This document shows, one piece after another, positions 4,121 through 35,757 of a stretch of DNA of 64,000 bases (positions within the stretch are counted from its first letter, which is position 1; every line of letters begins with the position of its first letter). The notes under the pieces were generated by a model that was given only the letters and a program-made list of their open reading frames with translations, searched no databases and had not been told where the DNA came from. The DNA comes from Dehalococcoidia bacterium (GTDB taxonomy: Bacteria > Chloroflexota > Dehalococcoidia > Plut-88900). The stretch covers positions 352,001-416,000 of the forward strand of contig CBDFLQ010000005.1 in NCBI GenBank assembly GCA_965249275.1. The letters are read 5' to 3'. Position numbers and translations under genes: made by a program.

Positions 4121-4166
4121 CACCCTCACCCTAGCCCTCTCCCGTCGAGGGAGAGGGGACAGGACC
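4121..4166. repeat. REP-like palindrome family A (IS481 target)
   Basis: CACCCTCACCCTAGCCCTCTCCC(A/G)TCGAGGGAGAGGGGA; also at ~10672, 15964/17274, 24397, 39058 and 47321. Confidence 0.85.
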
Positions 4167-5467
4167 GGTACAGACCGGGCAGAAAGGTAACACATAAACC
4201 GGGGACATGGGTAACACATCGTGGGATTGTATTAGGCAATCCCAGAGGAGGAAGATGTGTTGCCTTGGAAAGACACGAGCATAGAATCGGAGCGGTTGCA
4301 GTTCATCGAGCGTCACACTGCGGGAGAGGAGACTATTGCTGAGCTGTGCCGCCGGTCCGGGATCAGCCGCAAGACGGGCTACAAGATAATCGGCCGATAC
4401 GAGGCGTATGGTGAGGACGGTCTACTTGACCTAAGCCGGGCTCCTCACAGCCATCCCAACGCCACTTCCATAGAGGTGGCTAAGCGTATCATCGAGGCGA
4501 AGCGCACCCATCCCACATGGGGCCCGAAGAAGATCGTCGCCTGGTTGCATTCCATCGAGCCCTACGTGCCCTGGCCTTCCTCCAGTACTGCGGGCGCCAT
4601 ACTGGACCGTGTGGGTCTGGTGAGGCGGCGCAAGCGGCGGCGCAGGGCTACACGCTGGGGCGAGCCCTTCGCCCACGCCCGGCACCCCAATGACGTGTGG
4701 GCCATCGACCTGAAGGGCTGGTTCCGCACGGATGACGGAATGCGGATAGACCCCCTTACAGCCCAGGACGCCATGTCCCGCTACTTACTGGTATGCGACC
4801 CTCTCGACCGCCCTGCCGGCCCGGAAGTCAAGCGCTCTCTGGAGAGAACCTTCCGAGAGTACGGCATCCCTCGGGCCATACGCACCGACAATGGTCCGCC
4901 CTTCGCCAGTGTGGGTCTGGGCAGCCTCTCACCACTCTCAGCATGGTGGGTCAAGCTCGGGATCGTACCCGAACGCATAGAGCCCGGTCACCCCGAACAG
5001 AATGGACGCATCGAGCGCCTTCACCGGACCCTCAAGGCCGAGACCGCAACACCTCCAAAGGCCAACTGGAGACGACAACGCAGAGCCCTCGAACGCTTCA
5101 GACACACCTACAACTTCGAGAGGCCACATGAGGCCCTGGGGCAGCAACCACCAAGCCGGCTGTACACGCCCTCGATCAGACCCTATCCCACACGTATCAG
5201 CTCGCCCGAGTACAACGCCGGTGTCACCGTACGTAGTGTCCGCAGCAACGGACAGATCAAGTGGAAGGGAGATATGCTCTACGTGAGCGAGTCCCTCAAG
5301 GGCGAACCCATCGGCCTGGTCCAGATAGACGAACGAACCTGGTCCATACAGTTCGGGCCACTCATCATCGGACTCCTTGATGACCCCACCAGAAGGGTCG
5401 ACAAAACCCCAGTCAAAGTGTTACCTATGTCCTCGGTCTAACTGTTACCCATGTCCCCGGTCGTACA
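4167..5467 (+). mobile_element. IS481-family insertion sequence, copy 1 (1301 bp)
   Basis: Ends GGTACAGACCGGG... and ...CCCCGGTCGTACA; repeated subterminal GGTAACA motifs; flanking GACC duplication; matches 15973-17273 in reverse orientation. Confidence 0.93.
4257..5441 (+). CDS. IS481-family DDE transposase
   Basis: N-terminal HTH; WAIDLKG, IRTDNGPPF and PEQNGRIERLHRTLK rve core. Confidence 0.95.
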   Translation: MLPWKDTSIESERLQFIERHTAGEETIAELCRRSGISRKTGYKIIGRYEAYGEDGLLDLSRAPHSHPNATSIEVAKRIIEAKRTHPTWGPKKIVAWLHSIEPYVPWPSSSTAGAILDRVGLVRRRKRRRRATRWGEPFAHARHPNDVWAIDLKGWFRTDDGMRIDPLTAQDAMSRYLLVCDPLDRPAGPEVKRSLERTFREYGIPRAIRTDNGPPFASVGLGSLSPLSAWWVKLGIVPERIEPGHPEQNGRIERLHRTLKAETATPPKANWRRQRRALERFRHTYNFERPHEALGQQPPSRLYTPSIRPYPTRISSPEYNAGVTVRSVRSNGQIKWKGDMLYVSESLKGEPIGLVQIDERTWSIQFGPLIIGLLDDPTRRVDKTPVKVLPMSSV

Positions 5468-6879: not shown

Positions 6880-6944
6880 ATTAAGCTCCCTGGCGCCTGA
6901 GTCTCGGGATTAGAATGGCGGGGTCATTGTAGCACGGGGGTTGG

Positions 6945-8609
6945 TTAGCCGGGCCCCGGCTCCGGGGCCGCTTCCTTAGCGAAATGGTGCCTCTTACGCA
7001 GCGGTATCTCCTTCAACCCAACCAGGACTACGGCACCGAGCACCGCAAACACCGCCGCCACGATGAAAACCTCCTGAATCGACGATGCCAGGCTCTCTCT
7101 CATGGCCTCCACCACCGACTCCAGAACTGCGCTCTCGCCGAGCCCTTCCAGCCGCTCCTCCAGCATGGTGCGGGCCTCAGGGCTGATGAGGGCGTTGGGG
7201 TCACCGAGGTCTTCGGTCAGCGCTGTGCCCATCAGCTCACGGGTCTCGGGGGAGAGGTTGGCGGCGAGGTGGGTCGAGAGCCGTGAGGCCAGCAGCGAGC
7301 CCATCACCGCCACGCCCAGTGAACCGCCGATACTCCTGAAGAACTGGACGAAGGCGGTGACCAGCCCCATGAGTCCGTAGGGAAACGCATTTTGCACCAC
7401 TATGGTGAACAGGGGGAAGGTTATTCCCAGTCCCGCGCCCACTATCACCATGTTCCTGGCCATCACGCCGCTGGACGTGGTGCTGTCCATCGTCGCCAGC
7501 AGAATCACCCCTGTCGTCATCACGCCCATGCCGAGCAGGGCGAGGTATCTATAGCGGCTCCAACGGGACAGGGCCAGCCCTGCCAAGGTGCTGCTGACAA
7601 CCGCGCCGAGCATCATCGGCGTGAGCACCAGCCCCGAGTTGGTGGCGGAGTCACCGAGTACACCCTGCCCGAAGAGGGGGACGAATATGATGATCCCGAA
7701 CATAGTCATTCCGCTGAAGAACGTTGACACTGCGACCACGGTGAATATCCGGTTCTTAAAGAGCGAGAGGGGGAGGAGCGGTTCCGGGGCGCGGGTCTCG
7801 ATTAATAGGAACATCAGGAGCATCGCGGCTCCAAAAGCCAGCGACACAATGACCTGAGGCGAGCCCCACGGGTATTGCTGCCCGGCCAGGGAGACGCCCA
7901 GCATCAACGGGAGCAGCCCACCGATCAGTGCTGCAGCGCCCCAGTAGTCGACCTTCTGGTTTATACCTGTCCGGGACATCGCTGGCATGGCGGCGATGAG
8001 GGCAATCAGCGCTGCGCCGCCCACGGGCAGGTTTATGTAGAAAATCCAACGCCAGCTGAGGGTGTCGGTGAGGTAACCGCCGACGAGGGGGCCGACGATG
8101 CTGGCTATCCCAAAGACGGCGCCGATTAACCCCTGCCACTTTCCTCGCTCGGCGGGAGGGAAGATGTCACCGATGACGGTGAAGGTGTTGGACATCAAGA
8201 CAGCCGCCCCGGCCCCCTGAACTCCCCGGAAGATGATGAGCTGCAGCATGTTCTGGGATACGCCAGCCAAGGCCGAGCCCAACAGGAACACCGCTATCCC
8301 GATAATGAACAGCAGCCTTCGGCCGTAGATGTCCGACATCCGGCCCACAACCGGCACCAGGGAAGTCGACATTACGAGGTACGCGGCAACAACCCACGAT
8401 ATCTGACTGATGCCACCGAGGTCGGTGACGATTCGCGGCAAGGCCGTCGCCACGATGGTCATGTCGAGGGCGGCGAGGAACAGGCACATCATCGTGCCGA
8501 GGAGGATGAAGACGATGCGGGTTCTACTGAGTCTTCCGACAGAGGACAAGGCCGACGTCGCGTCTGACTGCTCGGTGGGTCCAGTCTTTTGCGCGTCCGA
8601 CTTGTTCAT
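6945..8609 (-). CDS. MFS transporter, DHA2 (EmrB/QacA) family
   Basis: [36 protein letters not shown]; about 14 TM; start placed at MNKSD. Confidence 0.92.
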
Positions 8610-29400: not shown

Positions 29401-29546
29401 ATTGGGAACCTCTTTCTAAGCTATGTCGCCTGGCTATGTCACCTGATGGCTGGAACTCAATCCAAACCTTACCAAAAGCTGCAGCAAGTTTGCCACACAT
29501 CTCAATCCCTGTGGTATTTTGAGCATGCCCAACGGCTCAACTGGAG

Positions 29547-30104
29547 ATGCTTGCCTTGAACATGACAAATGCCGACCAATCCTTTATCCGAAGGATGTAC
29601 ACCGCCGACAACCTACCTGTCTTGCAACGACTCCCCGACGCATCAGTCGACCTCATCTACCTGGACCCGCCCTTCAATTCCAACCGGGACTACGCTGCGC
29701 CTATAACGGTTAAGAACCCCAAGACCGGCAAGCGGGAAAAGCACCTGGCCGAGTTCAAGGACACTTGGACTTTCACTGATGACGACGCCGAGTGGTTATA
29801 TGTTATTAGGTCTGACTATCCCACCGTCTATGCAGTGATCGAGTCAGTCAAAACAGCCCACAGCTTCCGCATGGCGGGCTACTTGTGCATGATGGCTGTC
29901 CGGTTACTCGAAATGCAACGCATTCTCAAGCATAGCGGGGCGATATATCTACACTGCGATCCTACCGCATCTCACTATCTGAAACTGCTCATGGACACAG
30001 TATTCGGCCCGTCAAACTTCAAGGCTGACATTACTTGGAGGCGAACTAGCAGCCATAACGACGTAAGGCGGAATTACGGTGCATTGGGAGACAACTTATT
30101 CTTT
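29547..30104 (+). pseudogene. 5' fragment of a DNA methyltransferase-HNH gene interrupted by the IS1595 element
   Basis: VDLIYLDPPFNS, IYLHCDPTASHYLK; joins in frame to 33913 when the element and one TSD are removed (DNLFF|YTKSTNF...MPYSKEH). Confidence 0.9.
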
Positions 30105-30152
30105 GGGAATTATATACAATAAGGCATCAGGAATTGGCCTGATAAACCATAC

Positions 30153-30554
30153 CTATCGTGGACGACGGCCCAACGTCGAGGTTGTGTGACCTGTTGCCGT
30201 GTTATTTTCCGCCGACCACTCCCAATTTCGGGTCAACTCTTTCAGCCATTGGGCACCTTCGGCAGCATCAAAATCACTCGCACCGCAATCGGGCCAATTG
30301 GGGCGACCAGAATAGTTCATCTTCACTCCCTGCGCCGATGCAATGAACCAGACCGAATCAGCGTCTGTTCGCTCCTTAGAATTATCACGACCCCATTCAA
30401 CGTACATTGAAAAGGGAGACACATTTACATTCGTCGGCCAAACAAAATCGTTCGGAAGATGCTCCAACAGCGCCTCCAGCGCCTGCGTCATCTGATGCAT
30501 GCTGTCTACCACCCCGTACATGGACCCGCATCCCGAAGAACCTTCAATCGTCAT
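30153..30554 (-). CDS. Hypothetical protein (transposon cargo)
   Basis: 133-aa ORF with AAGGAG RBS upstream of ATG; no recognised motif. Confidence 0.6.
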   Translation of the reverse strand: MTIEGSSGCGSMYGVVDSMHQMTQALEALLEHLPNDFVWPTNVNVSPFSMYVEWGRDNSKERTDADSVWFIASAQGVKMNYSGRPNWPDCGASDFDAAEGAQWLKELTRNWEWSAENNTATGHTTSTLGRRPR

Positions 30555-30658
30555 AATACTCCTTGCTTACGAACATCTTAGCTATCCAACTGTCTCTTTT
30601 TCCCGCGTCTCGCCGTAGGTCTTTACTACTCTCTCGGGGTTTGAGAACGTGGGTTGGT

Positions 30659-30747
30659 GGGTAAGTGCCGGAACCGGCAGACGGGCTATCCTGCCAAGAT
30701 AGTGGCCCTTCGTGGTCGTAGGGGTTCGATCCCCCTCTTACCCACCA
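30659..30747 (+). tRNA. Class II tRNA with Leu-type body and GCC (Gly) anticodon
   Basis: Acceptor GGGTAAG/CTTACCC + A73 + CCA; D arm CCG-GAACCGGCAGA-CGG; anticodon arm CTATC-CTGCCAA-GATAG; long variable arm; T arm AGGGG-TTCGATC-CCCCT. Confidence 0.9.
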
Positions 30748-30757
30748 ACCCCTCTAA

Positions 30758-30985
30758 TTATCCTCGAGGCGGGAAGGGATCGTTGCCGTAGCTGTCCTTC
30801 TCCCTGATCTTCCCGTCCTTGCCATGTAAGTAATACTCGGCGTCATGGTTTCGAGCAACCTGCCGGCCGTAAGAATCTGCCTCGGCCTGGGTATCGAAGG
30901 ACTTCGTAATCCTCGATGCTCCGCCCTTCCGCACAGCCCACTTATCCCCATAGGGAACGGTGTGTTGAGTTTCTTTGCGTGCCAT
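30758..30985 (-). CDS. DUF2188-family small protein
   Basis: QHTVPYGDKWAVRKGGASRIT..FDTQAEA...LHGKDGKIREKDSYGNDPFPPRG. Confidence 0.8.
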   Translation of the reverse strand: MARKETQHTVPYGDKWAVRKGGASRITKSFDTQAEADSYGRQVARNHDAEYYLHGKDGKIREKDSYGNDPFPPRG

Positions 30986-31002
30986 TACATTACCTCTGTT
31001 AT

Positions 31003-31152
31003 CTAAGGTGCTACCTCTTTATGGTCCTTCCCGTCGTCCTGCTCCTCACCCTTCTTGGGATTCGGCCCCTTCACCACCGCCCGTAGCACATCCTCAAACG
31101 TGTCGGGTATGTGGAGCCTCTCAAACGGGCTTCTGTCTTCGCTCTTTTTCAT
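31003..31152 (-). CDS. Small hypothetical protein (LHIPDTFEDVLRAVVK type)
   Basis: 49-aa ORF co-oriented with the transposase and DUF2188 gene. Confidence 0.5.
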   Translation of the reverse strand: MKKSEDRSPFERLHIPDTFEDVLRAVVKGPNPKKGEEQDDGKDHKEVAP

Positions 31153-31322
31153 CTTATATAGATTATACCCCCACTTGCCTGAGATTGAAACACCTGTGCG
31201 GTATGGCACTATAGAAACTAAGGGGGGGTAAGTAGACGGTAGACTTTACCCTCCCTACCTGTTGATAATTCCAATATAGAAGAAAGCCTTGGAGGTTAAT
31301 CACATCTCCAAGACTCTCATCA

Positions 31323-31411
31323 GCCGTAGTGGTGGAACTGGTAGACACGCCCGGCTTGCACCCGGGTGGACTAATCGTCCGTGCAGGGTTCGAATCCCGC
31401 CTACGGCACCA
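31323..31411 (+). tRNA. Class II tRNA with Leu-type body and TGC (Ala) anticodon
   Basis: Acceptor GCCGTAG/CTACGGC + A73 + CCA; Leu-like GTGGTGGAACTGGTAGACACGC; anticodon arm CCCGG-CTTGCAC-CCGGG; variable arm GGAC-TAATC-GTCC; T arm with one bulged A; no G3:U70. Confidence 0.9.
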
Positions 31412-31501
31412 CTCTTCTTGATCCCTATTTTCATTATAAACACCTCTTCACCTTCCTGTAAATTCGTTGACGTCTACCCCCTGTGGGTGTACCTTGTCCC
31501 C

Positions 31502-31592
31502 GCTTAGGTAGTCTACCCGTACGCTGAACGTTATTTGGGCATGGGGCCGCTCATGCCCCCTTGCCAGTGAAACGGGCCAGGACTGCCTAAGC
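31502..31592 (+). ncRNA. Putative long-hairpin RNA or leader behind its own promoter
   Basis: GCTTAGGTAGTC/GACTGCCTAAGC, CCCGT/ACGGG and GGGCATG/CATGCCC nested stems; TTGACG-17nt-TACCTT at ~31468-31496. Confidence 0.45.
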
Positions 31593-31627
31593 AACGGTCA
31601 CCAGCCTAGCTGCAAGGGGGTTCCAAT

Positions 31628-32173
31628 ATGACAAAAAGCCGAATCGGGTTTTGGCTACTCATCTCTCTAATCCCTATGGGATTACTCACCTTCCTCGGAT
31701 TCATCATAAGCATTGTTCTATTCATAGGGTCCAGTAGTGATGAACCAGAGGGAGCCGAAATAGCATGTACCTTTGTCTTCTTTGCTTCGCTCTTCTACTG
31801 GTGGGGTGCTCTCTTCACCGGCATCGGATTGAAGATATTGTCCAGGCGGGAAAATCAGCAGATGTTTGCTCAAGCTCAGCGATACGCCGAGGTACACGGA
31901 TGGCAACCCATCTCGCAGTCCGCATGGAGAGCACTTAAAGCAGACAGAGCTTCCCTTGCTGTAAGTCGAAGCATTCAGGGGACGATGTATACCCTCACTA
32001 TCGCATCAGGAGTGAACACCACCACTGTCACTAACTTCGCTACACCTCTATGGGCACTACAATTTGGTGACTGGTTATGGGAGAGAACGGGGGGCGAAAA
32101 CATCACCCCAGAGACAGCACAGGCTCAACGGCAAGAATGGTCTCAGAACTTGGCAATCATTCCCACCGTCTAG
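31628..32173 (+). CDS. Hypothetical membrane protein (two N-terminal TM helices; transposon cargo)
   Basis: 181-aa ORF with two hydrophobic segments and AAGGGGG RBS. Confidence 0.7.
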   Translation: MTKSRIGFWLLISLIPMGLLTFLGFIISIVLFIGSSSDEPEGAEIACTFVFFASLFYWWGALFTGIGLKILSRRENQQMFAQAQRYAEVHGWQPISQSAWRALKADRASLAVSRSIQGTMYTLTIASGVNTTTVTNFATPLWALQFGDWLWERTGGENITPETAQAQRQEWSQNLAIIPTV

Positions 32174-32188
32174 CCATCCATACGGTAA

Positions 32189-33106
32189 CTACACATTGGT
32201 AATTAAGTCGTCGTAGGTTAGTCGCTTGCCGTGCGTTCCCTTGATCAACCTCTTCATCTGGTCAAGGGTATCCATGGGCCGGTCGTTGTGCCGCCCAGCG
32301 AACTCGGTGGCATAGCGGCTCAAGTGTTTGGGAGAGACATGGTGGTAAGTACCCATAATCCCCCGCTTGAGCATGGCCCAGTGGCTCTCGATGCTGTTGG
32401 TCGTAACCTCACCCCTAACGTACTCCCCGGTGGCATGATCAACCGCTTCGTGCTTCAAGGGAATACCCCTGTAGGAGAGGTGTCCATCACTGTGCAAGGT
32501 AGCGTCCGGTTCAACGTTGTCGAGAACGAATCCTTGGAGAATGGGTTTCTTCGTAGAGGGAAGCACCTCGGCCTTGATCTGATTAGTTGGCTTATCCAAG
32601 AGCCCCGCCACGATGGCCTTACCTTTAGGCCCTCTCCCCATGCCTCTCCACTTCCCGCCAACGTAGGTCTCATCCACCTCGACAGGCCCTCCGAAGAGTC
32701 CCTGCTCTGACTCCCACGCCTTCCGTATCCTGTGCGCCAAGTGCCAAGCTGATTTTTGGGTAATGTTGAGGTCCCGATGCAATTTCATCGAGGAAACGCC
32801 CTTGAGGTTCGTGGTCATGAGGTAAATGGCGATACCCCACTTGGAGAGAGGAAGGTTGGAACCGTGCATGACGGTGCCAGTTTTGACGGAAAATTCCAGC
32901 TGGCAGTAGGTGCAGTGTAAGGGCTTTACCTTGCGGTTGGGGCGACGGGTGATCTCCATGCCGCCACAGCGGGGGCATGATATACCGCTGGGCCAACGAG
33001 ACTCGATGAATAACTGCTCAGCCTTTTCCTCGGTGGAGAATAATTTAGTGACCTCCAGAAGGGACAAACCCTTCCGATAATGCTTACCTGGGGCGTTCCG
33101 TGCCAT
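32189..33106 (-). CDS. IS1595-family transposase
   Basis: Zn ribbon CPRC...CTYC, KGVSSMKLHRDL, VEVDETYVGG, HSDG, TNSIESHW, HLSRY; start placed at MARNAPG after a TTTACA-17nt-TATAAT promoter. Confidence 0.95.
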   Translation of the reverse strand: MARNAPGKHYRKGLSLLEVTKLFSTEEKAEQLFIESRWPSGISCPRCGGMEITRRPNRKVKPLHCTYCQLEFSVKTGTVMHGSNLPLSKWGIAIYLMTTNLKGVSSMKLHRDLNITQKSAWHLAHRIRKAWESEQGLFGGPVEVDETYVGGKWRGMGRGPKGKAIVAGLLDKPTNQIKAEVLPSTKKPILQGFVLDNVEPDATLHSDGHLSYRGIPLKHEAVDHATGEYVRGEVTTNSIESHWAMLKRGIMGTYHHVSPKHLSRYATEFAGRHNDRPMDTLDQMKRLIKGTHGKRLTYDDLITNV

Positions 33107-33220
33107 GCGCTGATCTCCTACTTCGGCTATCCTTGTTGACATAACTATTATAACACATCTCCTAATTTGTGTAAACAATGCCCAAGCAATGGAGAAAACA
33201 TGGAAAATACTGCTAAAACT

Positions 33221-33250
33221 TGGACACAATTTCAGTGGAAATAGTATCAT
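33221..33250 (+). promoter_or_regulatory. Putative sigma70 promoter for the structured-RNA array
   Basis: TGGACA-18nt-TATCAT immediately upstream of the first structured unit, divergent from the transposase promoter. Confidence 0.5.
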
Positions 33251-33256
33251 ACGGAG

Positions 33257-33410
33257 GGCAGGGTACGCAAGGAATTTATGGCACCAGGAGGCACCAATGG
33301 TCCCCTATCGGGGAATGAAACTCAGCCGGCTCCACTTTGAATAGACGTTCTGCAAAAACGTCGTGGGGTTGGCTACAAGAAGGACATTTTAGACCCTTGC
33401 ATACCCTGCC
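33257..33410 (+). ncRNA. Structured RNA unit 1, with an anticodon-like stem-loop (GCA)
   Basis: Closing stem GGCAGGGTAcGCAAGG/CCTTGCaTACCCTGCC; inner AGCCGGCTCCAC/GTGGGGTTGGCT; hairpin GACGTT-CTGCAAA-AACGTC. Confidence 0.6.
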
Positions 33411-33419
33411 AATACAACG

Positions 33420-33516
33420 TGAGAGGACATGCCTGTTGGTGCAGGCCAGAATTTGCCAAACTCTTGAGAACGTTGGCATATCCAACGTTGCGGTTCGATT
33501 CCGATCCTCTCCGCCA
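33420..33516 (+). tRNA. Irregular (9/3-like, allo-tRNA-like) tRNA with GCC anticodon and G73
   Basis: GAGAGGA/TCCTCTC acceptor core ending GCCA; D arm GCCTG-TTGGTG-CAGGC; AGAAT-TTGCCAA-ACTCT; long extra arm AACGTTGG/CCAACGTT; 3-bp T stem CGG-TTCGATT-CCG. Confidence 0.7.
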
Positions 33517-33542
33517 TCAAATAATTTGTATTATCATATAGA

Positions 33543-33660
33543 TGAGGGGAGTAGTGGTAATCCGGTAGACTCTCGATGTTCCCAACATCGGCATTGCTTA
33601 GGTAGTGTGTGTCAGACGCTGGCACAGAGTTTTTACAGAGGAACCATCTACTCTCCTTCA
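33543..33660 (+). ncRNA. tRNA-like unit with CCC anticodon loop and no canonical T arm
   Basis: TGAGGGGAGTAGTGGT/ACCATCTACTCTCCTTCA stem; Leu-like GGTAGAC; CGATG-TTCCCAA-CATCG; extra arms GCATTGC/GTAGTGT and GTGTCAG/CTGGCAC. Confidence 0.55.
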
Positions 33661-33673
33661 AGATTATACATGT

Positions 33674-33743
33674 CGCAGTCCCTGGCTGTGTGACAGGAAC
33701 GCCTTGGTACCAGCGTTGGGCTTTCAACCTGACTGCGCCTCCA
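33674..33743 (+). ncRNA. Small cloverleaf-like unit
   Basis: CGCAGTC/GACTGCG acceptor-like stem followed by CCTCCA; arms CCTG/CAGG, AACGC/GCGTT and GGG-CTTTCAA-CCT. Confidence 0.4.
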
Positions 33744-33760
33744 TATCTCCTCAATTTGAA

Positions 33761-33874
33761 TGGGAAACAAGATGGACGACCAGACATATGTCACTGTTGG
33801 AGGTTTGGCAAGACCTCCTTGATGAATTAGCGCTCGTGTTCAGCGTCGCTTCATATCTGGTCGTCCATCTCCCA
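33761..33874 (+). ncRNA. Structured RNA unit with long closing stem and TTGGCAA loop
   Basis: AGATGGACGACCAGA/TCTGGTCGTCCATCT 15-bp stem ending CCCA; inner GGAGGT-TTGGCAAG-ACCTCC. Confidence 0.5.
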
Positions 33875-33912
33875 CTGCTTGATGCCTTATTGTATATAAT
33901 TCCCTATTCTTT

Positions 33913-34800
33913 TATACGAAGAGCACTAATTTCATATTTAATACTCAATACATGCCTTACTCCAAAGAGCACATGGAGAAATTTTACTCCCACATCGATA
34001 AAGACGGCAGAAAGTACAGCACTGACAATTTGAGAAGCCCTGCACCCAGACCTAATTTGACTTACGAGTACAAGGGATACAAACCTCACCCCAATGGGTG
34101 GACAGTGTCACTTGAGAGAATGAAGCGACTCGACGCAGAGGGGCGTCTTCATTTTCCGAAAAAGAAGGACGGTCGAATCCGCATAAAGAAATTCCTTGAT
34201 GAAATGCCCGGCGTGCCTATGGGCAATATATGGGATGACATCAGACCTATCTCATCTCACTCTGAAGAACGCCTAGGCTACCCTACCCAGAAACCCTTGG
34301 CCCTGCTAGAACGCGTAATTAGGGCATCCACCAACGAGGGCGATCTAGTTTTGGACCCCTTTGCGGGTTGCGCCACGGCCTGTGTCGCAGCGGAGAAACT
34401 GAAACGGCAGTGGATCGGCATTGACGTGAGCGACCTTGCAGTCAAGCACGTCTTGGAGCGCATCCAGGATGGTTACAACCAGGGCGACTTCCCGGATATC
34501 CTTGAAACAGGGTTCCATCCCGACAAGGTGGATCACTTAGTTATCAGTGGGGAGGCACGCGCCCCGCGCTACCAAGACCGCAAGCCGGAGCTATACGTAC
34601 ACCAGAACGGCAGGTGTGCGGGCTGCCACCTCGAACTCCCGGAGCGCCTTCTGGCCGTGGACCATATTAAGCCGAGATCCAAGGGGGGCGCCGACGCTAT
34701 CGAAAACCTTCAACTCCTCTGCACTGACTGCAACTCCCGCAAAGGCAACCGGGACATGAAATACCTGTTGGAGTCCCTAAAGAGGGACGGAATAATTTAG
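33913..34800 (+). pseudogene. 3' fragment of the DNA methyltransferase with C-terminal HNH nuclease domain
   Basis: GYPTQKPLALLERVI, VLDPFAGCAT (motif I), CAGC...VDHIKPRSKGG...NLQLLCTDCNSRKG; internal ATG at 33952. Confidence 0.9.
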
Positions 34801-34818
34801 AGGCGAGGGCTTTCCAAT

Positions 34819-35757
34819 ATGACCATAGACATTCACAACCACATCTGGACCCGGGAGTATCTTTCCGACCACTGGTGGGATATTTACGCAAACTTTTTCT
34901 CTAGCTATATCACCGACTCCCCATTCTCGGGGACGCCGGAGGAGATAGACCGGAACCTGTTTGCCAAATGCTTTGATCCCGACGGCTCGGAGTGCATAGT
35001 GGAGATGGATGAGGCGGGGATAGACGTGGCCGTGGTCACGGCCATCGACGGGTCATGCGCGCTGGGGGAGGCGCCCAAGTCGATAGAGGAGCAGAACCGG
35101 GAGCTCGCCGACATCTGCGCCGCCTACCCGGAACGCTACATCTTCTTCTCGTGCATCGACCCACGGGCCCCGGGGGCGCTGGAGTTCGTCGAGCGCTCCG
35201 TCGAGGAGTGGAATGCCAAGGGATTCAAGTTTCACCCCAACATGAGTGGGCTGTATCCGTGGCACGAGGCGGCATACCCGATCTACGAACGGCTCCAGGC
35301 TCTCGGGCTTCCCGTCTTGTTTCACACGGGCCAGATGTTCGAGCCTCTCGATCCCAAGTTCAGCCAGCCAAAGGAGCTCATCCAAGTCCTCACCGACTTT
35401 CCGGATTTGAAAGTCATTGCCGCTCATCTCGGCATTGCGTCATGGCGGGAGTTGATTGAAGTGGCGCGGGACAGGCCGAACCTGGTGACAGACTTCTCGG
35501 CGTTCCAGCATGAGGCGGCCAACAACTATGGGAGGTTCTGCATCGTGCTCAGACGGGTGATCGATGGCCTGGGCGTCGATCGCGTCCTATTCGGGTGCGA
35601 CGGCCCAGTGTGGACTCGATGGTATTCCCGCAAGTGGTGGGTAGACCTTGTGAGAAACATGCCTGACAACCCCACGGAGAAGGCGTCGTTTACTCATGAA
35701 GAGGTCGAGGCCATGCTTCACGGCAACGCGGTTCGGGTGTTGGGGCTCGGGGCCTGA
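34819..35757 (+). CDS. Amidohydrolase family 2 protein
   Basis: IDIHNH, GFKFHP, PVLFHTG, IAAHLG, RVLFGCDGP. Confidence 0.9.
   Translation: MTIDIHNHIWTREYLSDHWWDIYANFFSSYITDSPFSGTPEEIDRNLFAKCFDPDGSECIVEMDEAGIDVAVVTAIDGSCALGEAPKSIEEQNRELADICAAYPERYIFFSCIDPRAPGALEFVERSVEEWNAKGFKFHPNMSGLYPWHEAAYPIYERLQALGLPVLFHTGQMFEPLDPKFSQPKELIQVLTDFPDLKVIAAHLGIASWRELIEVARDRPNLVTDFSAFQHEAANNYGRFCIVLRRVIDGLGVDRVLFGCDGPVWTRWYSRKWWVDLVRNMPDNPTEKASFTHEEVEAMLHGNAVRVLGLGA

Follow-up and report, generated by a model that had tools for sequence, protein, structure and literature searches.

A predicted cluster of irregular tRNA-related RNAs in the cargo of an IS1595-family transposon from Dehalococcoidia

The window studied here, a stretch of 64,000 nucleotides from a Dehalococcoidia bacterium (phylum Chloroflexota; assembly GCA_965249275.1, contig CBDFLQ010000005.1, positions 352,001 to 416,000), contains a 3.8-kb transposon of the IS1595 family (30105-33904), whose cargo at the right end is an array of five distinct folded units tiling 33257-33874 on the + strand (Table 1). 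We read this array, with a probability of roughly 0.55, as a transposon-borne cluster of irregular tRNA-related RNAs having a function at the RNA level on the + strand. The reading leans on unit 2, a relative of the allo-type tRNAs found on sister elements; on unit 4, a small cloverleaf with compensatory changes in a homolog; and on the exceptional folding of units 1, 3 and 5. The same element encodes two Leu-type tRNAs with mismatched anticodons, with which the array appears to belong.

The carrier transposon and the fold of its array

The element is a recently inserted IS1595-family transposon, with the array as non-coding cargo. Its transposase frame (32189-33250, - strand) combines a DDE_Tnp_IS1595 domain (PF12762, 2.3e-30) with an N-terminal Zn_ribbon_IS1595 domain (PF12760, 4e-08); the terminal inverted repeats are perfect, and their 24-mer has no copies in the genome beyond these two; the 8-bp target duplication TATTCTTT (30097-30104 and 33905-33912) is identical on both sides. 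The DDE domain with its zinc ribbon, the terminal repeats and the 8-bp duplication are traits of the IS1595 family. The insertion interrupts a DNA methylase gene (N6_N4), whose N-terminal piece (29547-30122, profile positions 1-94) and C-terminal piece, fused to an HNH domain (33952-34800, profile positions 132-216), were both recognised by Pfam; excision in silico of the element plus one duplicate restores an unbroken methylase-HNH frame of 481 aa. The parts of this gene that lie outside the element are 29547-30104 and 33913-34800. One DNA sequencing contig covers 29648-34600 with no differences. Short-sided joints within the inverted repeats (side 21) were not adopted as evidence of excision, as they most probably arose in assembly at the repeat. 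The window contains three inverted repeats of 14 bp or longer, all of them within the element, and the GC content of the element region is 0.50-0.52 versus mostly 0.56-0.63 elsewhere in the window. The original prediction, which concerned the array, did not see the IS1595 carrier, the two mismatched Leu-type tRNAs or the allo-type tRNAs of sister elements. Outside the window, the same genome has a remnant of an IS1595-type transposase (locus L013, G000:C5:103106-103330; 73 aa, 44% identity, with an internal TAG); four clustered host tRNA genes (C5:102489-102900) lie some 200 bp away.

The array occupies the stretch from the divergent transposase promoter (a promoter-like site TTTACA-17-TATAAT at 33175-33147, found by promoter scan) to the right inverted repeat. 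The promoter proposed to lead it, TGGACA-18-TATCAT, is in place, divergent from the transposase promoter and ending 7 nt upstream of unit 1. All five units were confirmed at the positions originally given to them, each distinct and closed by a stem. The closing stems had been put at 7-17 bp; all are present, that of unit 5 reaching 18 bp plus 5 outer pairs and that of unit 2 having 7 standard pairs in 8 positions.

Table 1 Features of the IS1595-family element and its five-unit array (window coordinates).
Feature	Position	Strand	Description	Source
Left terminal inverted repeat	30105-30128	+	24 bp	Repeat search
Leu-type tRNA, Gly anticodon (GCC)	30659-30747	+	Class II, 89 nt, A73, CCA	ARAGORN
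DUF2188 protein	30761-30985	-	75 aa	PF09954 4.8e-21; PADLOC PDC-S16 E 5e-32
Leu-type tRNA, Ala anticodon (UGC)	31323-31411	+	89 nt, A73, CCA	ARAGORN, RF00005 47.2 bits
IS1595-family DDE transposase	32192-33106	-	305 aa from ATG at 33106	Pfam
Sigma-70-like promoter	33221-33250	+	TGGACA-18-TATCAT, 10/12 matches	Consensus scan
Unit 1	33257-33410	+	Rod-and-head RNA, 154 nt	Folding
Unit 2	33420-33516	+	Degenerate 8/4 allo-type (Ser-like) tRNA	Rfam, model R1
Unit 3	33543-33660	+	118 nt, three inner hairpins	Folding
Unit 4	33672-33743	+	Four-way-junction RNA, 72 nt	Homolog comparison
Unit 5	33761-33874	+	114 nt	Folding
Right terminal inverted repeat	33881-33904	-	24 bp	Repeat search

The whole stretch (33250-33880, 631 nt, 20 shuffles) has a folding energy of -236.5 kcal/mol with z -6.75 on the + strand; the corresponding - strand values are -233.5 kcal/mol and z -4.95. 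None of the 20 shuffles was as good as the + strand, in agreement with the original expectation of a fold better than that of shuffled sequence. With 300 dinucleotide shuffles for each unit, the z-values on the + and - strands were -5.0 and -6.9 for unit 1, -2.1 and -3.1 for unit 2, -5.7 and -2.6 for unit 3, -0.6 and -1.0 for unit 4, and -6.0 and -6.0 for unit 5. Units 1, 3 and 5 fold exceptionally, and units 2 and 4 at the level of ordinary tRNAs.

The anticodon-like loops originally noticed are present: CTGCAAA (33350-33356), TTGCCAA (33453-33459), TTCCCAA (33579-33585) and TTGGCAAG (33805-33812). Hairpins in which a stem of 5 bp or more carries a Y-U-NNN-R-N loop are enriched on the + strand over shuffled sequence (three, versus 0.32 in 2000 shuffles; P(>=3) = 0.0055); four are found on the - strand, so this feature gives no strand information. 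The CCA ends described for units 2 (33514-33516), 4 (33741-33743) and 5 (33872-33874) were found, and unit 1 likewise has one (33409-33411); in units 1 and 5 both C's of the CCA lie within the closing stem.

A protein-coding array was rejected, in line with the absence of a convincing open reading frame (ORF) claimed at the outset: the three ORFs overlapping the array (118-142 aa) have no credible Pfam match, and the two of them that were searched against 5.8 billion protein clusters have no homolog. Since the array has no tandem repeats and its units share no direct repeats, a type III toxin-antitoxin RNA and a CRISPR-like array were also rejected, as were copies of a miniature inverted-repeat transposable element, the array being single-copy in the genome. 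In a gathering-score Rfam scan, RF00005 included, no unit reaches a curated threshold; ARAGORN reports none of the five at default settings, and at a threshold of 80% unit 2 appears and the others do not.

Structure and relatives of the individual units

Unit 2 is the one with tRNA homologs. The Rfam tRNA-Sec model scores it 34.6 bits, below its cut-off of 47, and its nearest host tRNA is tRNA-Ser. We compared it with R1, a covariance model built from three intact sister 8/4 tRNAs alone, unit 2 excluded; these three share a common 8/4 cloverleaf in which 11 of 29 pairs are compensatory. Unit 2 matches R1 over its full length at 41.5 bits (E 2e-5 over 513 kb), a score to be set against the 29 bits or less reached by the ordinary tRNAs of the sister loci; no host tRNA attains an E-value of 1e-3. 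Standard pairs form at 26 of the 29 model positions, the three non-standard ones being U1.C72, an A.C in the anticodon stem and a G.A at the base of the T stem. In the R1 alignment the acceptor branch has the 8/4 layout with 7+3 pairs formed; there follow a 6-bp D stem with a UGGU tetraloop, an anticodon loop UUGCCAA with the anticodon GCC (Gly, 33455-33457) on the stem that carries the A.C mismatch, an 8-bp variable-arm stem, the T loop GGUUCGAUUCC, and G73 before CCA. The long variable arm, the long D stem with its tetraloop and G73, all characteristic of allo-tRNAs, are thus found in unit 2, which, judged by its sequence, is a diverged, partly disrupted allo-type tRNA of a family that has intact members on sister IS1595 elements of other Dehalococcoidia.

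Unit 4 combines three arms with a 9-bp acceptor-like stem and ends in U73 and CCA; no linker nucleotides separate its helices. Its middle loop CUUGGUACCA, of 10 nt, contains the palindrome UGGUACCA (33704-33713). One homolog of 88% identity was found, in a metagenome-assembled genome of the same genus of Dehalococcoidia (G005); there, a lone copy follows TTGACA-17-TAGAGA, and no IS1595 end is nearby. Across the two sequences 39 of 40 cells are paired and four pairs are changed on both sides: the 12 differences comprise eight that make up the four compensatory pairs and two that convert U.C to G.U, so that 10 of the 12 maintain or improve pairing. When the pairing was shifted by 1-3 columns as a control, the number of compensatory pairs fell to 0. 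Unit 4 is, on this comparison, a tRNA-shaped RNA and not a tRNA, its NCCA cloverleaf apparently maintained by compensatory change. The search for further relatives of unit 4 gave nothing: its loop pattern occurs across the genome contigs in G005 alone, matches three metagenome sequences by chance with no likeness beyond the pattern, and gave one chance match in a coding region and nothing else in the viral scans; a second covariance model (R2, unit 4) run on 151 genomes and the 40 sister loci described below found nothing new. The element has an ORF of 181 aa, and so has the region upstream of the G005 copy; kinship between the two was discarded for want of any likeness by eye.

The palindrome UGGUACCA is exposed in the loop of unit 4 and conserved in G005. 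An unrelated RNA with a long stem, on a sister element (L062, element 2697-2805), likewise contains it in unpaired form; this RNA folds at -66.7 kcal/mol opposite the transposase strand versus -43.9 kcal/mol on the other strand.

No T or D arm can be recognised in the rod-shaped units 1, 3 and 5, and none of them matches R1. Unit 1 is closed by a 16-bp stem (33257-33272 with 33395-33410) around a branched inner part that includes a hairpin of 12+6 bp with the loop CUGCAAA. The closing stem of unit 3, of 15 bp with one bulge (33544-33558 with 33643-33658), belongs to a strand-specific fold, the minimum free energy (MFE) being -52.4 kcal/mol on the + strand versus -34.8 kcal/mol on the - strand; its hairpin loop UUCCCAA can close to 3 nt in the MFE fold. 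Unit 5 is closed by 18 bp (33770-33787 with 33853-33870) plus five outer pairs, contains an inner 6-bp hairpin with the loop UUGGCAAG, and its CCCA end lies 6 nt before the right inverted repeat. A BLAST search with the array against 61 related genomes, 401 genomes of the class and 401 of the phylum returned only the G005 copy of unit 4 and matches to the T loops of ordinary tRNAs.

The original description of the units as tRNA mimics is accordingly borne out in part: unit 2 is tRNA-derived and unit 4 tRNA-shaped, and units 1, 3 and 5 match no tRNA model. The resemblance of unit 1 to a 6S-like rod was not upheld, as it has no Rfam match at E <= 10 in a scan of 29500-35000.

Other cargo of the element and its sisters in Dehalococcoidia

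The two Leu-type tRNAs of the element both appear intact, with a long variable arm. The body of the first (30659-30747) is nearest to host tRNA-Leu; its leader and trailer lengthen the acceptor stem to about 15 bp (30651-30672 with 30730-30751) and are paired to its ACCA end, an arrangement also seen in the long closing stems of units 1 and 5. The second (31323-31411) has 75-84% identity to the host tRNA-Leu genes and 73% identity to the CUC-anticodon Leu-type tRNA of a sister element (L072). The host genome encodes its own Gly GCC, Gly CCC, Ala UGC and Cys GCA tRNAs; if the Leu-type tRNAs were charged by leucyl-tRNA synthetase, GGC and GCA codons would be misread. A distance of 14 nt separates the first tRNA from the end of the DUF2188 gene, whose product gives a full-length match to the PADLOC defence candidate PDC-S16; three ORFs of the element belong to no recognised family. 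In a run from a different study (X4), a 214-nt contig is identical to 30539-30752, including the tRNA at 30659; this run shows no cover of the array.

Relatives of the transposase, of 61% identity at most, are present in 115 of the 401 Dehalococcoidia genomes sampled, a tally that includes one unpublished genome (G243). Forty transposase loci with 5-kb flanks were surveyed. A pair of inverted repeats with the common core GGGAATTATATAC was found in 29 of them, accompanied by a perfect 8-bp duplication in 26 of these 29. The sizes of the sister elements (1448-6310 bp) imply that nearly all bear cargo, and this cargo is highly variable: of the 81 cargo ORFs that reach 95 aa, N6_N4 methylases (10) and HNH proteins (7), the two types joined in the interrupted gene of the window, are the commonest, SocA/Panacea occurs twice, and BglII, a type ISP enzyme, a C5 methylase and KilA-N are single cases.

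ARAGORN found 10 tRNA genes in 8 of 30 element sequences (the element of the window and both copies of one element being counted among the 30), nine of them opposite the transposase strand, like the array. They include intact 8/4 tRNAs that have G73 and whose anticodons are GCG, GAU and CAG (on L050, L051/L052 and L062, respectively), an 8/5 tRNA with AGA (L066) and the Leu-type tRNA with CUC (L072). Two copies of the 2776-bp element that bears the GAU tRNA are present in a single genome (G286; L051 3505-6280 and L052 3505-6280), flanked by different target duplications, which indicates that element and tRNA transpose together.

Some sister loci hold further structured RNAs. One (L082) has two tandem irregular tRNAs divergent from the IS1595 transposase: the first (6889-7008) is 120 nt long with a variable insertion of about 48 nt (RF00005, 50.4 bits), and the second (7297-7381) is Sec-like (34.9 bits) with the loop AUUCAAA, a UCA-type anticodon. 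Another (L059) has three units with closing stems of 12-16 bp immediately within the inverted repeat that lies upstream of the transposase (element 27-311, locus about 4130-4414), with the motifs AAUACAAC and AUUAUACCAU in their spacers, like the spacers between the units of the window. A T-box leader (L044 2534-2828; 92.4 bits, cut-off 93) adjoins another IS1595 element.

Readings of the array and comparison with known systems

If the array is a cluster of irregular tRNA-related RNAs, a single precursor would be transcribed from the promoter at 33221-33250 and cut at the tRNA-like units by RNase P together with RNase Z or exonucleases, the long leader-trailer stems being probably cut by a double-strand RNase. 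The products would more likely be tRNA look-alikes, binding or occupying tRNA-handling proteins or being modified by them (candidate targets are synthetases, the CCA enzyme, modification enzymes and tRNA-cutting toxins), than ordinary decoders, because unit 2 has broken pairs and units 1, 3 and 5 have no T or D arms. The array would then be a mobile accessory to the mismatched tRNAs and the defence-type genes of this transposon family. A specific decoy or sponge role is an unlikely refinement of this reading; its circumstantial support is the defence-type cargo (DUF2188/PDC-S16 here, the cargo families of the sisters) and nothing else. We regard as distinctly doubtful the broader proposal of a mobile RNA toolkit, in which mismatched Leu-type tRNAs and co-transcribed rod-and-head tRNA-derived RNAs would titrate or redirect tRNA-handling enzymes or tRNA-cutting toxins; the leader-trailer helix might here hide the CCA end, leaving an anticodon-arm-like hairpin exposed. 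Were it true, what IS1595 transposons of Dehalococcoidia disseminate would be an RNA module for manipulating translation or defence, and not protein cargo.

Several results weigh against the reading as a cluster of irregular tRNA-related RNAs that function on the + strand. The 41.5 bits of unit 2 fall inside the range of 36-47 bits of R1 matches in other genomes, which are probably ordinary class II or Sec tRNAs, and its three broken pairs, as far as sequence can tell, would suit a pseudogene as well as a specialised RNA. Apart from unit 2, no unit has an Rfam match at E <= 10, the tRNA and 6S families included, and none fits a tRNA model. For units 1, 3 and 5 no homologs were found in the 61 relatives, the 401 class genomes, the 401 phylum genomes, the phage and plasmid collections or the sister loci, which leaves thermodynamics as the sole ground of their structures; units 1 and 5, moreover, fold equally well on the - strand. 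The covariation of unit 4 comes from two sequences and is equalled by 33 of 500 column shuffles. Within unit 3 there is a terminator-like hairpin (33608-33626, GUGUCAG-ACG-CUGGCAC) followed by a U run (to 33635); if it were used, transcripts would stop before the 3' strand of the closing stem. The claim of a promoter lead stands as to the presence of the site and not as to its significance, the number of promoter-like sites in the element (5) being not above chance (3.9 +/- 2.1 in shuffles). Nor are long-stem units enriched in the sister elements as a whole (0.88 versus 0.54 per 10 kb).

The units could instead be decaying hitch-hikers, tRNA genes that the transposon lineage once acquired and that no longer have a function, with at most the Leu-type tRNAs still working. 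The three of 29 pairs broken in unit 2 but not in its intact sisters, reminiscent of an allo-tRNA pseudogene described in the text of PMC5389517, fit such an origin, as do the orphan status of units 1, 3 and 5 and the variable cargo of the sisters; yet relics would be expected to lose pairing, and units 1, 3 and 5 retain near-perfect stems of 15-19 bp, unit 4 has undergone compensatory change, and the five units exactly fill the space from promoter to inverted repeat. We consider decay unlikely. The position of the stretch, exactly between the inverted repeat and the transposase promoter, would suit a structure acting in the DNA or insulating transcription, one that blocks or sequesters read-through from outside, or serves the transposition machinery, without making stable RNAs; the folds of units 1 and 5 are at least as good on the - (transposase) strand, and L059 likewise has three long-stem units inside its inverted repeat upstream of the transposase. 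Such a role is quite improbable given that unit 3 folds far better on the + strand, that unit 2 is a tRNA homolog in + orientation, that unit 4 in G005 is a stand-alone, promoter-led gene without an insertion sequence (IS), and that many sister elements have less than 100 bp between inverted repeat and transposase, so that the family does not need the structure.

Two further explanations keep the RNA and change its nature. The units, at least 2 and 4, might be charged and act with the Leu-type tRNAs as missense suppressors, making the element a mobile device for misreading the code. Allo-tRNAs insert Ser at non-Ser codons in E. coli according to the texts of PMC5389517 and PMC7609411, unit 2 has G73, CCA and a long variable arm, and the two tRNAs with Leu-type bodies (30659 and 31323) appear intact. 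We nevertheless judge working decoders very unlikely: unit 2 has mismatches in the first acceptor pair, a T-stem pair and an anticodon-stem pair, units 1, 3 and 5 are 114-154 nt long and have no T and D arms, unit 4 has a middle loop of 10 nt and no linker nucleotides, and degenerate allo-tRNA(UAU) variants are reported in PMC5389517 to be inactive in E. coli. Least probable is one large multi-domain non-coding RNA of about 620 nt, self-associating through the palindromic loop UGGUACCA; there is a single promoter, with no terminator between the units besides the weak one in unit 3, and the exposed palindrome of unit 4 recurs unpaired in the long-stem unit of L062, but no large-RNA family of Rfam matches at E <= 10, unit 4 occurs alone in G005, and unit 2 is a tRNA homolog with a CCA end.

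Large RNAs such as ROOL, GOLLD and OLE, often found near tRNA genes on mobile elements, are single large RNAs; a ROOL/GOLLD-type RNA or other Rfam family was rejected, with no match at E <= 10. With 6S RNA, unit 1 shares a long, mostly paired rod and differs from it in its branched inner part and in being single-copy transposon cargo; 6S was rejected, no 6S model matching at E <= 10 in 29500-35000. The Y RNAs (YrlA-type, a Ro/Rsr-bound rod with a tRNA-like head) resemble units 1, 3 and 5 as end-paired rods with a branched head, and were rejected as well, with no Rfam match and no PF05731 (TROVE/Ro) gene in the 87%-complete genome.

Clusters of tRNAs in phages, read as replacements or decoys against anticodon nucleases, are canonical and anticodon-matched. 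The element resembles them in carrying mobile, extra tRNA-shaped RNAs that duplicate host anticodons, and in its defence-type neighbours (DUF2188/PDC-S16 here, restriction-modification genes on the sisters); it differs in that body and anticodon are mismatched, or the RNA is not a tRNA, and in that no nuclease partner was identified. The IS1595 family is known for 'transporter IS' with passenger genes (ISfinder traits). The element of the window agrees with these in its DDE and zinc-ribbon domains, terminal repeats, 8-bp duplication and extra genes, the difference being that its cargo is mostly RNA (two mismatched tRNAs and the five-unit array). A literature search for IS1595, tRNA and passenger genes gave nothing relevant by title or abstract.

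The nearest precedent for the array is the polycistrons of irregular tRNAs described by Mukai et al. (Nucleic Acids Res 2017; PMC5389517), which the original prediction overlooked in proposing a new class of non-coding RNA. In its text the allo-tRNAs have 8/4 or 9/3 branches and, usually, non-serine anticodons. Degenerate copies in which pairs are broken are described as well, along with five-stem-junction forms and with polycistrons of allo-tRNA-like and other irregular tRNAs found in metatranscriptomes; a link to transposable elements and toxin-antitoxin systems is suspected. The hosts named in the paper, and again in a review (PMC7609411), are Clostridia, Proteobacteria and Acidobacteria. 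Going by the text of the 2017 paper, the allo-tRNAs and unit 2 have in common that they come up as tRNA-Sec-like false positives and have a long D stem with a tetraloop, a long variable arm and G73; unit 2 follows the 8/4 layout and has a non-serine anticodon, but with two pairs of its acceptor branch and one of its anticodon stem non-standard. The polycistrons and the array resemble each other in their degenerate copies, in a succession of irregular tRNA-like sequences on one strand, and in an association with transposable elements and with genes of toxin-antitoxin or defence type. Within the array this likeness in succession holds for units 2 and 4, both tRNA-like, and not for units 1, 3 and 5, which match no tRNA model: three of the five units are rods of 114-154 nt without T or D arm, set apart from the irregular tRNAs as the published text describes them, with a closer likeness to the drawn five-stem-junction, tRNA0, tRNA1 and tRNA2 forms being possible. 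The host here is a member of the Dehalococcoidia (Chloroflexota), and the carrier is an exactly delimited IS1595-family transposon; a literature search for allo-tRNA and Chloroflexi returned only PMC5389517, in whose text Chloroflexi concern tRNA-Sec.

Measured against what that text describes, the new points are the host phylum, the exactly delimited mobile IS1595 carrier and the rod-closed units, for which we have no verified precedent. Irregular tRNAs have been known since 2017, and this element bears on their biological role and on how they spread. If the rod-closed units are stable RNAs, the range of transposon-carried tRNA-derived RNAs would be wider, and whether such RNAs are decoders, decoys or junk becomes a testable question, for which this element offers a compact 3.8-kb construct with seven RNA genes that can be cloned and tested as a unit.

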